Of a stretch of DNA of 64,000 nucleotides, positions 21,901 through 24,900 are shown piece by piece; position 1 is the stretch's first letter, and every line of letters starts with the position of its first letter. The position numbers were made by a program. The stretch is from Escherichia coli (GTDB taxonomy: Bacteria > Pseudomonadota > Gammaproteobacteria > Enterobacterales > Enterobacteriaceae): assembly GCF_003018115.1 (NCBI RefSeq), contig NZ_CP027457.1; one strand, 5' to 3'.

Positions 21901-24900
21901 GGCATCTTTTTTCAGTGCAGCGGTGAGTTTGTCGGCATCCAGTTCCAGTTTGCCATCGCTGGGATCGGTCGTGATACCAATCTGCGCCAACGTTTTATAG
22001 TTGGAAGAACTAACGGTATTACTCAGCATCGACTTCAACTGCGTCTGAATCGTCCGCAGCGTGGAGTCGCCGAGCAGTGCGCCATTGCTAGAGCTCTGGC
22101 TATCAGCTCCCGCATCTACGGCGGTGTATTTGGTCAGGCTGCTGAAGGTATCTATTAGCGAGTTATAGGCATTCACCCAGTCTTTAATCGCCGTTTGCGC
22201 TTTGGAGGTGTCCTGAGTGATGGTCAGCGTCTGGTTGCCCGTGGTGACATCGTTCAGGTTCAGGGTGATGTTTTCCAGCGCGTCGCTGATAGTGTTGCTG
22301 CTGTTCTCGATGGCGACGTTGTTGACTGTCAGCTGCGCATTCTGGGCGGCGACCGAGACCTCCATGCCGTTGCTGCTGGCACTGGCGTCATAGCCCATAA
22401 AACTTTGTAGCGCATCATCACCGCTGACCGAGAGTGTCATCGCATTATCAAGGCCGGTGTCATTTGATGTGACTGACAGACGATATTCACCGTTACCCAC
22501 GTTAATGATGCTCGCACTTACGCCCGCTTTTGCGTTGTTGATGGCATCACGGATCCCGCTTAACGACGAGTTAGCCGCGCTGATATCAATGGTAATCGGA
22601 TCTTTGTCGCCGCCTTGTTGAATGGTGAGTTTACTGTCGCTGGTGGCGATCGCCGTTTTCGTATCATCTCTGGTGGTGCGCGTGGTCAGGGTTTGCGCCT
22701 GCGCCAGATGGGTGACGCTGATGGTGTATTTCCCGGCGATGGCGTTACCCGCGGTGGTGGCACTGAACGCGGTGGTGCTGCTGGTAGTGCTGGTGGCGGA
22801 AAAAAGATCGGCTTTAGACAATGCAGTATTGGCGGTCTGGAAAGTCGTCAACGCGCTTTTCAGCGTACCGTAGGCGCTAAGTTTAGCGGTAAACGACGAT
22901 TGCTGATTTGAAATAGGGGTTAGCGTCGCTTTTTGCGCGGCGGTGAGGCTATCAAGGATTGAACTTAAATCCAGGCCTGACCCGACTCCCAGCGATGAAA
23001 TACTTGCCATGCGATTTCCTTTTATCTTTCGACACGTAAAACGAATACCGGGGTTATCGGCCTGAATTGCGCAAAGTTTACGTTTAATTGTTTTTTTTAA
23101 TAGCGGGAATAAGGGGCAGAGAAAAGAGTATTTCGGCGACTAACAAAAAATGGTTGTTTGTGAAAAAAATTCTAAAGGTTGTTTTACGACAGACGATAAC
23201 AGGGTTGACGGCGATTGAGCCGACGGGTGGAAACCCAATACGTAATCAACGACTTGCAATATAGGATAACGAATCATGGCACAAGTCATTAATACCAACA
23301 GCCTCTCGCTGATCACTCAAAATAATATCAACAAGAACCAGTCTGCGCTGTCGAGTTCTATCGAGCGTCTGTCTTCTGGCTTGCGTATCAACAGCGCGAA
23401 GGATGACGCCGCGGGTCAGGCGATTGCTAACCGTTTTACTTCTAACATTAAAGGCCTGACTCAGGCTGCACGTAACGCCAACGACGGTATTTCTGTTGCG
23501 CAGACCACCGAAGGCGCGCTGTCCGAAATCAACAACAACTTACAGCGTATCCGTGAACTGACGGTTCAGGCTTCTACCGGGACTAACTCTGATTCGGATC
23601 TGGACTCCATTCAGGACGAAATCAAATCCCGTCTGGACGAAATTGACCGCGTATCCGGTCAAACCCAGTTCAACGGTGTGAACGTACTGGCGAAAGACGG
23701 TTCGATGAAAATTCAGGTTGGTGCGAATGACGGCCAGACTATCACTATTGATCTGAAGAAAATTGACTCTGATACTCTGGGTTTGAGTGGATTTAATGTG
23801 AATGGCAAAGGGGCTGTGGCTAACGCAAAAGCGACCGAAGCAGATTTAACGGGGGCTGGTTTCTCTCAAGGAGCGGTGGATACAAACGGAAATAGTACTT
23901 GGACAAAATCAACCACCACCAATTACTCAGCTGCAACAACTGCTGACTTGTTATCGACCATTAAGGATGGCTCTACTGTTACATATGCAGGGACAGACAC
24001 CGGATTGGGGGTCGCAGCAGCAGGAAATTATACTTATGATGCGAACAGTAAATCTTATTCCTTCAATGCCAATGGTCTGACGGGCGCAAATACCGCAACT
24101 GCACTCAAAGGTTACTTGGGGACAGGTGCTAACACCGCTAAAATTTCTATCGGTGGTACAGAGCAGGAAGTGAATATTGCCAAAGATGGCACTATTACAG
24201 ATACGAATGGTGATGCGCTCTATCTGGATATTACCGGCAACCTGACTAAGAACTATGCGGGTTCACCACCTGCAGCAACGCTGGATAACGTATTAGCTTC
24301 CGCAACTGTAAATGCCACTATCAAGTTTGATAGCGGTATGACGGTTGATTATACTGCAGGTACTGGCGCGAATATTACAGGTGCATCCATTTCTGCAGAT
24401 GACATGGCCGCAAAACTGAGCGGAAAGGCGTACACTGTTGCCAATGGTGCTGAGTCTTATGACGTTGCTGCAGTTACGGGGGCTGTAACAACTACAGCAG
24501 GTAATTCACCTGTGTATGCCGATGCAGACGGTAAATTAACGACGAGTGCCAGTAATACGGTTACTCAGACTTATCACGAGTTTGCTAATGGTAACATTTA
24601 TGATGACAAAGGCTCGTCACTGTATAAAGCTGCAGATGGCTCTCTGACTTCTGAAGCTAAAGGGAAATCTGAAGCAACCGCCGATCCCCTGAAAGCTCTG
24701 GACGAAGCGATCAGCTCCATCGACAAATTCCGCTCCTCCCTCGGTGCGGTGCAGAACCGTCTGGATTCCGCAGTCACCAACCTGAACAACACCACTACCA
24801 ACCTGTCCGAAGCGCAGTCCCGTATTCAGGACGCCGACTATGCGACCGAAGTGTCCAATATGTCGAAAGCGCAGATCATTCAGCAGGCCGGTAACTCCGT

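Follow-up and report, generated by a model that had tools for sequence, protein, structure and literature searches.

The window, a stretch of 64,000 nucleotides of Escherichia coli DNA, contains a flagellin gene, fliC, together with flagellar genes on both sides of it. The features needed to follow the argument are listed here.

23276-24955, plus strand: fliC, complete open reading frame for a 559-aa flagellin assigned below to H41; stop codon TAA at 24953-24955
23276-23797, plus strand: conserved N-terminal part of fliC, residues 1-174, the D0/D1 filament-core helices (from identity to K-12 and predicted helices)
23798-24656, plus strand: hypervariable central region of fliC, residues 175-460, predicted to form the surface-exposed outer domains that would carry H41 antigenic specificity
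24657-24952, plus strand: conserved C-terminal part of fliC, residues 461-559, the D1/D0 helices (from identity to K-12, the Pfam Flagellin_C domain and predicted helices)
23173-23199, plus strand: sigma-28 (FliA) class-3 promoter-like site, TAAAGGTT-N11-GACGATAA, read from the sequence and of putative function
24959-25152, plus strand: fliC 3'UTR, equivalent of the region of the K-12 sRNA FliX, with an intrinsic terminator at its end (from alignment and reading of the sequence)
21604-23010, minus strand: fliD, filament cap, 468 aa, the divergent neighbour of fliC
21169-21579, minus strand: fliS
20804-21169, minus strand: fliT
25275-25994, plus strand: fliA, sigma-28, 239 aa, downstream of fliC

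The reading frame at 23276-24955 is an intact, ordinary E. coli fliC, whose product belongs to the FliC/FljB flagellins of the Enterobacteriaceae. Pfam searches of the 559-aa protein identified Flagellin_N (PF00669) at residues 5-140 (E 1.4e-46) and Flagellin_C (PF00700) at residues 472-557 (E 4.7e-32), so that both the N-terminal and the C-terminal helical domains are present. The Pfam domain FliC, which describes the middle/C-proximal part of enterobacterial FliC, was found at residues 338-462. Further substantiating this, the NCBIfam model for FliC/FljB family flagellins (NF005953) scored 744.9 bits (cut-off, 619) and was covered from end to end (model positions 1-548). Translation placed the interval highlighted in a sequence-only reading of this DNA, 23798-24656, at residues 175-460 of the product, and the peptide quoted there is present in this reading frame according to the ORF listing.

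The position of the gene is that of fliC, between the divergent fliDST genes and fliAZ, and it is preceded by a sigma-28 promoter-like sequence that is the same as in K-12. The ORFs of fliD, fliS and fliT agree in order and length with those of K-12 and of O169:H41 genomes, and fliA is annotated at the equivalent place in both. The ORF listing gives fliA, fliD, fliS and fliT as full length; fliA, whose product is the sigma factor acting at the fliC promoter, is followed on the same strand by fliZ, tcyJ and dcyD. Overall, the order fliT-fliS-fliD / fliC-fliA-fliZ is that of K-12, relative to which the window is in reverse orientation, and that of the best-matching complete genome. Nothing in these data contradicts the identification of the gene as fliC.

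The sequences expected to control the gene are conserved as well. The interval 23173-23199 is identical in K-12 and O169:H41 when aligned, and K-12 and the window share 99% identity over the whole fliD-fliC intergenic region. The site fits the sigma-28 consensus, TAAAGTTT-N11-GCCGATAA. Downstream, the K-12 annotation places the ncRNA fliX immediately after fliC, and the 3' region of the window is 99% identical to the fliX/3'UTR of K-12. It ends in a terminator composed of a CCCCGCC/GGCGGGG stem and a T-run (25130-25152). Transcripts would be expected to begin at the FliA (sigma-28) promoter, which lies 77 bp ahead of the ATG, and to stop at this K-12-like terminator. The content of the window gives no argument against expression of fliC, and we infer that the gene is probably expressed. 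At position 25140, the window has a G that makes the stem perfect, as in K-12; the O169:H41 genome 2014EL-1345-2 has an A there, which leaves a mismatch in the stem.

Comparison with the K-12 flagellin (H48; b1923, 498 aa; PDB 8CXM for the core) revealed the same locus, promoter, 3'UTR and D0/D1 termini, with a different protein in between. In a global alignment evaluated in 25-residue windows, protein identity to K-12 was 92-100% at residues 1-150 and 76% at 151-175, fell to 0-40% at 176-450, and rose through 52% at 451-475 to 88-100% at 476-559. The conservation of the flagellin termini claimed by the sequence-only reading is thus borne out, at 88-100% over residues 1-150 and 476-559. A blastn comparison of the DNA with the K-12 locus aligned window positions 18882-23795 at 97.4% and 24676-29064 at 98.2%, and detected no homology at 23796-24675, i.e., between the two aligned flanks. 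The highlighted interval is therefore almost base-for-base the cassette that is non-homologous to K-12. This gap measures 880 nt in the window; its K-12 counterpart has 697 nt, exactly 61 codons fewer. The K-12 length of 498 aa given in the sequence-only reading and its estimate of about 60 additional residues were both right: the product is 61 residues longer than that of MG1655 fliC (b1923), and the extra length resides in the central region.

Identity with the K-12 H48 flagellin is accordingly rejected, since the centre is not homologous to b1923 (no blastn match; 0-40% protein identity at 176-450). A centre matching H48 over its full length was what the sequence-only reading had named as evidence against itself, and neither blastn nor the protein alignment found such a match. 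The non-K-12 background that it proposed is likewise upheld by the flanks of fliC, which are 97-98% and not 100% identical to K-12, and by the allele itself. The centre may be unrelated in DNA to the K-12 segment because lineages swap the central part of fliC as a cassette, through recombination within the conserved ends; on this proposal, the present allele would have arisen by such an exchange.

The different H serotype suspected from the sequence can be named. The protein is identical over 559/559 residues to gi|30059912, designated 'H41, RVC 1787' in a curated database of H-antigen flagellins (PMC3578835, supplement), and RVC1787 / AY250020 is the H41 reference (PMC4753304). There is thus no difference at the protein level between the window fliC and that of the H41 type strain (UniProt Q842B3). 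The database comprises 196 sequences, of which the H41 and H37 entries were compared; a ranking against all 53 H types was unnecessary, since the match to the H41 type strain is exact and the central segment was also searched for in 5,426 complete genomes of E. coli. Megablast of the entire gene against these genomes recovered five at 1679/1680 identity and six more at 98.5%. Among the five are 2014EL-1345-2 and F6326-C1, both 'O169:H41' according to the serotype labels in their record names. The locus of these O169:H41 enterotoxigenic (ETEC) ST182 genomes is the same, and their fliC is one synonymous T/C difference away, at nucleotide 1077 of the ORF (window 24352). The 98.5% group (strains C4, ST2747 and HYM1) encodes an I319T variant of the H41 flagellin, which the database of PMC3578835 labels 'H41 (99.8%)'.

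Considering that H37 and H41 cross-react serologically, to the point that cross-absorbed antisera are needed to tell them apart (PMC4753304), H37 was tested explicitly as an alternative in which the H41 call would be a mis-assignment. Of the other H types, H37 comes closest: the flagellin of its type strain P11a is collinear with the window protein, has near-identical termini and shares motifs with it, for example two of 13 and 15 residues. However, with 561 aa it is two residues longer, and it matches the window protein at 77% of residues overall and at 60% of those in the centre, as against 100% for the H41 reference. Genomes encoding the 561-aa form, among them HUE1 with one residue changed relative to P11a, match the central DNA segment at only ~64% identity. 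The H37 reading is refuted by these comparisons, and we give it a negligible chance of being correct.

A novel or untypeable antigen with a new central cassette might be considered instead, given that the central segment is rare: used alone as query, it was found at ≥99% in 11 of the 5,426 complete genomes, with the next best at ~64% and everything else at ≤73% over partial lengths. The name given to the allele by PGAP is also merely generic ('FliC/FljB family flagellin'), while some other genes are named 'H48 family flagellin FliC'. Against novelty stands the exact match to the H41 type-strain reference, with its 2003-era accessions, which refutes this reading; moreover, the very same protein occurs on 466 contigs and the I319T variant on 358. 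That the antigen is new has practically no probability left. An NCBIfam scan for an H-type-specific model listed matches to generic flagellin models, as it did for the K-12 protein, and holds no typing information.

The type-strain match, the clear separation from H37 and the occurrence of the same allele in H41-designated strains together identify the allele as H41 at the sequence level, and we are close to certain that the locus is the chromosomal fliC of a strain with the H41 allele of the flagellar antigen. The caution that the H type could not be assigned from sequence has been superseded by the 559/559 match to the H41 reference; the proposal of a different H serotype is confirmed, with a centre unlike that of K-12 H48 and identical to those of the H41 type-strain flagellin and the O169:H41 ETEC fliC. 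The H41 fliC found here is not new: both the allele and the antigen were known before, and the gene family is well understood.

The central region had been described as low-complexity and rich in Thr, Ala, Gly and Asn. Its richness was confirmed, as these four residues account for 52.4% of the centre and 33.7% of the termini. However, the K-12 centre is equally rich (52.9%), which makes the bias general to the outer regions of E. coli flagellins and no mark of this allele. Composition was therefore rejected as a trait separating the allele from K-12, both centres lying at ~52-53%; it is the sequence itself that differs. Low complexity holds for a small part of the region: SEG masks residues 209-222, 263-276 and 396-408, just 41 of 286. 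An AlphaFold2 model, built on an alignment of 45 sequences, had a mean pLDDT of 86, and most of the centre was above 90, with regular strands and short helices. Helices at residues 7-33, 41-100, 106-129, 471-528 and 531-558 represent D0/D1; between the N-terminal and C-terminal sets, over ~176-465, lies a beta-rich insert. A disordered low-complexity centre was rejected on the grounds of SEG and pLDDT; according to the model, the central region is a compositionally biased but folded domain assembly.

The solved structures closest in sequence were the flagellins of EPEC H6 (7SQJ/7SN7) and EHEC H7 (7SN4), with E-values of 1.8e-184 and 3.4e-151, and these alignments span residues 1-559 in a single stretch. 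The top Foldseek matches of the AlphaFold2 model were 7sn4 (EHEC H7), 9n59 (A. vinelandii), 7sn7 (EPEC H6) and 7sqd (Achromobacter), all ranking above Salmonella FliC. For 7sn4_A, the E-value was 1.3e-47 and the TM-score 0.59; such modest TM-scores reflect differences in how the domains are oriented to one another. H41 thus shares full-length collinearity and, as judged from the model, a best-match fold with the flagellins of EPEC O127:H6 (7SN7/7SQJ) and EHEC O157:H7 (7SN4); it differs from EPEC H6 in its centre, which is just 35% identical.

In the H7, H6 and Achromobacter flagellins, the outer part consists of three domains, D2-D4, which dimerise or tetramerise into an outer-domain sheath (PMC8931119). 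Given that the best sequence and fold matches are to flagellins of the H6/H7 class, H41 most likely has this three-outer-domain (D2-D4) architecture as well. Whether its filaments also bear a sheath of D2/D4 dimers like those of H7 and H6 is a tentative idea, to which we give slightly less than an even chance. If true, the sheath would have consequences for waveform and for tumbling in viscous media.

Searching proteins with the central region returned 13 matches, among which the query's own cluster was missing, so that the result is unsuited to claims about distribution. Two of the matched proteins, a partial flagellin of Atlantibacter hermannii (P0018) and P0017, both from outside E. coli, are ~53% identical to the whole H41 central region, a value that only H37 surpasses among the E. 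coli H types tested. This hints at an H37/H41 outer-domain family that may be shared among genera of the Enterobacteriaceae.

In the proposed mechanism, the conserved N- and C-terminal thirds of the protein would form the D0/D1 coiled-coil core, and the flagellin would be exported through this core and polymerise under the FliD cap. The central segment of 286 residues would fold into surface-exposed outer domains that set the H41 serological specificity. Export of the H41 flagellin and its polymerisation into a filament are to be expected from the intact ORF and the intact fli genes. Non-motile variants and flagellin loci other than fliC are known in E. coli. The strain could hence carry an H41 fliC without displaying H41, either because it is non-motile (H-) or because a flagellin encoded at a second locus (flkA/fllA/flmA/flnA type) represses fliC, and the data considered here cover a 64-kb window of the genome. 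Nevertheless, the window has intact copies of fliC with its promoter and terminator, of fliA, of fliD/S/T and of fliE-R, and fliE to fliR are free of internal stop codons. In addition, there is essential identity to the O169:H41-labelled genomes over positions 39001-64000, where flhA, the che genes, tar and tap lie, and those genomes show a single fliC-like place. Failure to display H41 is therefore improbable, and we favour a strain in which the H41 flagellin would be produced and assembled from this locus.

Finally, the window was compared with the genomes sharing the allele. The strains 2014EL-1345-2 and F6326-C1 are ETEC of ST182 in phylogroup E, and ST182 genomes were typed by SerotypeFinder as O169:H41 (93%) or O167:H41 (PMC8454413). 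In addition to positions 39001-64000, the stretch from fliC onward to 26363 is essentially identical to the ST182 O169:H41 genomes, and 17500-21000 is near-identical. Patches of 1-2% divergence were observed at ~1900-10000 (fliR to fliF), 16400-17500 and 21000-23027 (fliS-fliD); examples are 13 residue differences in fliK and 34 SNPs in 21001-23000 (fliS-fliD). On this evidence, the strain appears as a close relative of the complete ST182 genomes, yet is none of them.

The last of these patches ends at 23027, at the start of fliD and beside the near-identical fliC. Such a mosaic, abutting fliC on the fliD side, would fit recombination breakpoints flanking fliC and a fli region exchanged by homologous recombination. 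The patchy divergence suggests a recent recombination in the fli region within or into the ST182-like lineage, although we hold it a little less probable than its opposite. The practical value of these results lies in typing, as they point to an H41 strain that is essentially identical to the ETEC ST182 O169:H41 outbreak lineage in fliC and the 40 kb downstream of it, and help to assign the provenance of the sequence. They open no biological question, since earlier work has described the allele, how it stands as an antigen and how flagellins of this kind are generally built.

Elsewhere in the window, a 4.1-kb non-flagellar segment (12243-16379) lies between fliE and yedK and contains the following genes.

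12443-12772: SMR/EmrE-like transporter
12941-13492: PEBP/YbcL-like protein
13502-14299: AraC-family regulator
14801-15883, minus strand: general porin of 360 aa

In place of this segment, the ST182 O169:H41 genomes have a 1.4-kb remnant consisting of a DUF5503 pseudogene and an integrase fragment. Two further features are routine components of the E. coli core.

34947-35248, plus strand: tRNA cluster Gly(GCC)-Cys(GCA)-Leu(TAA)
53473-53550, minus strand: sRNA C0465 (Rfam RF00116, 111.6 bits)
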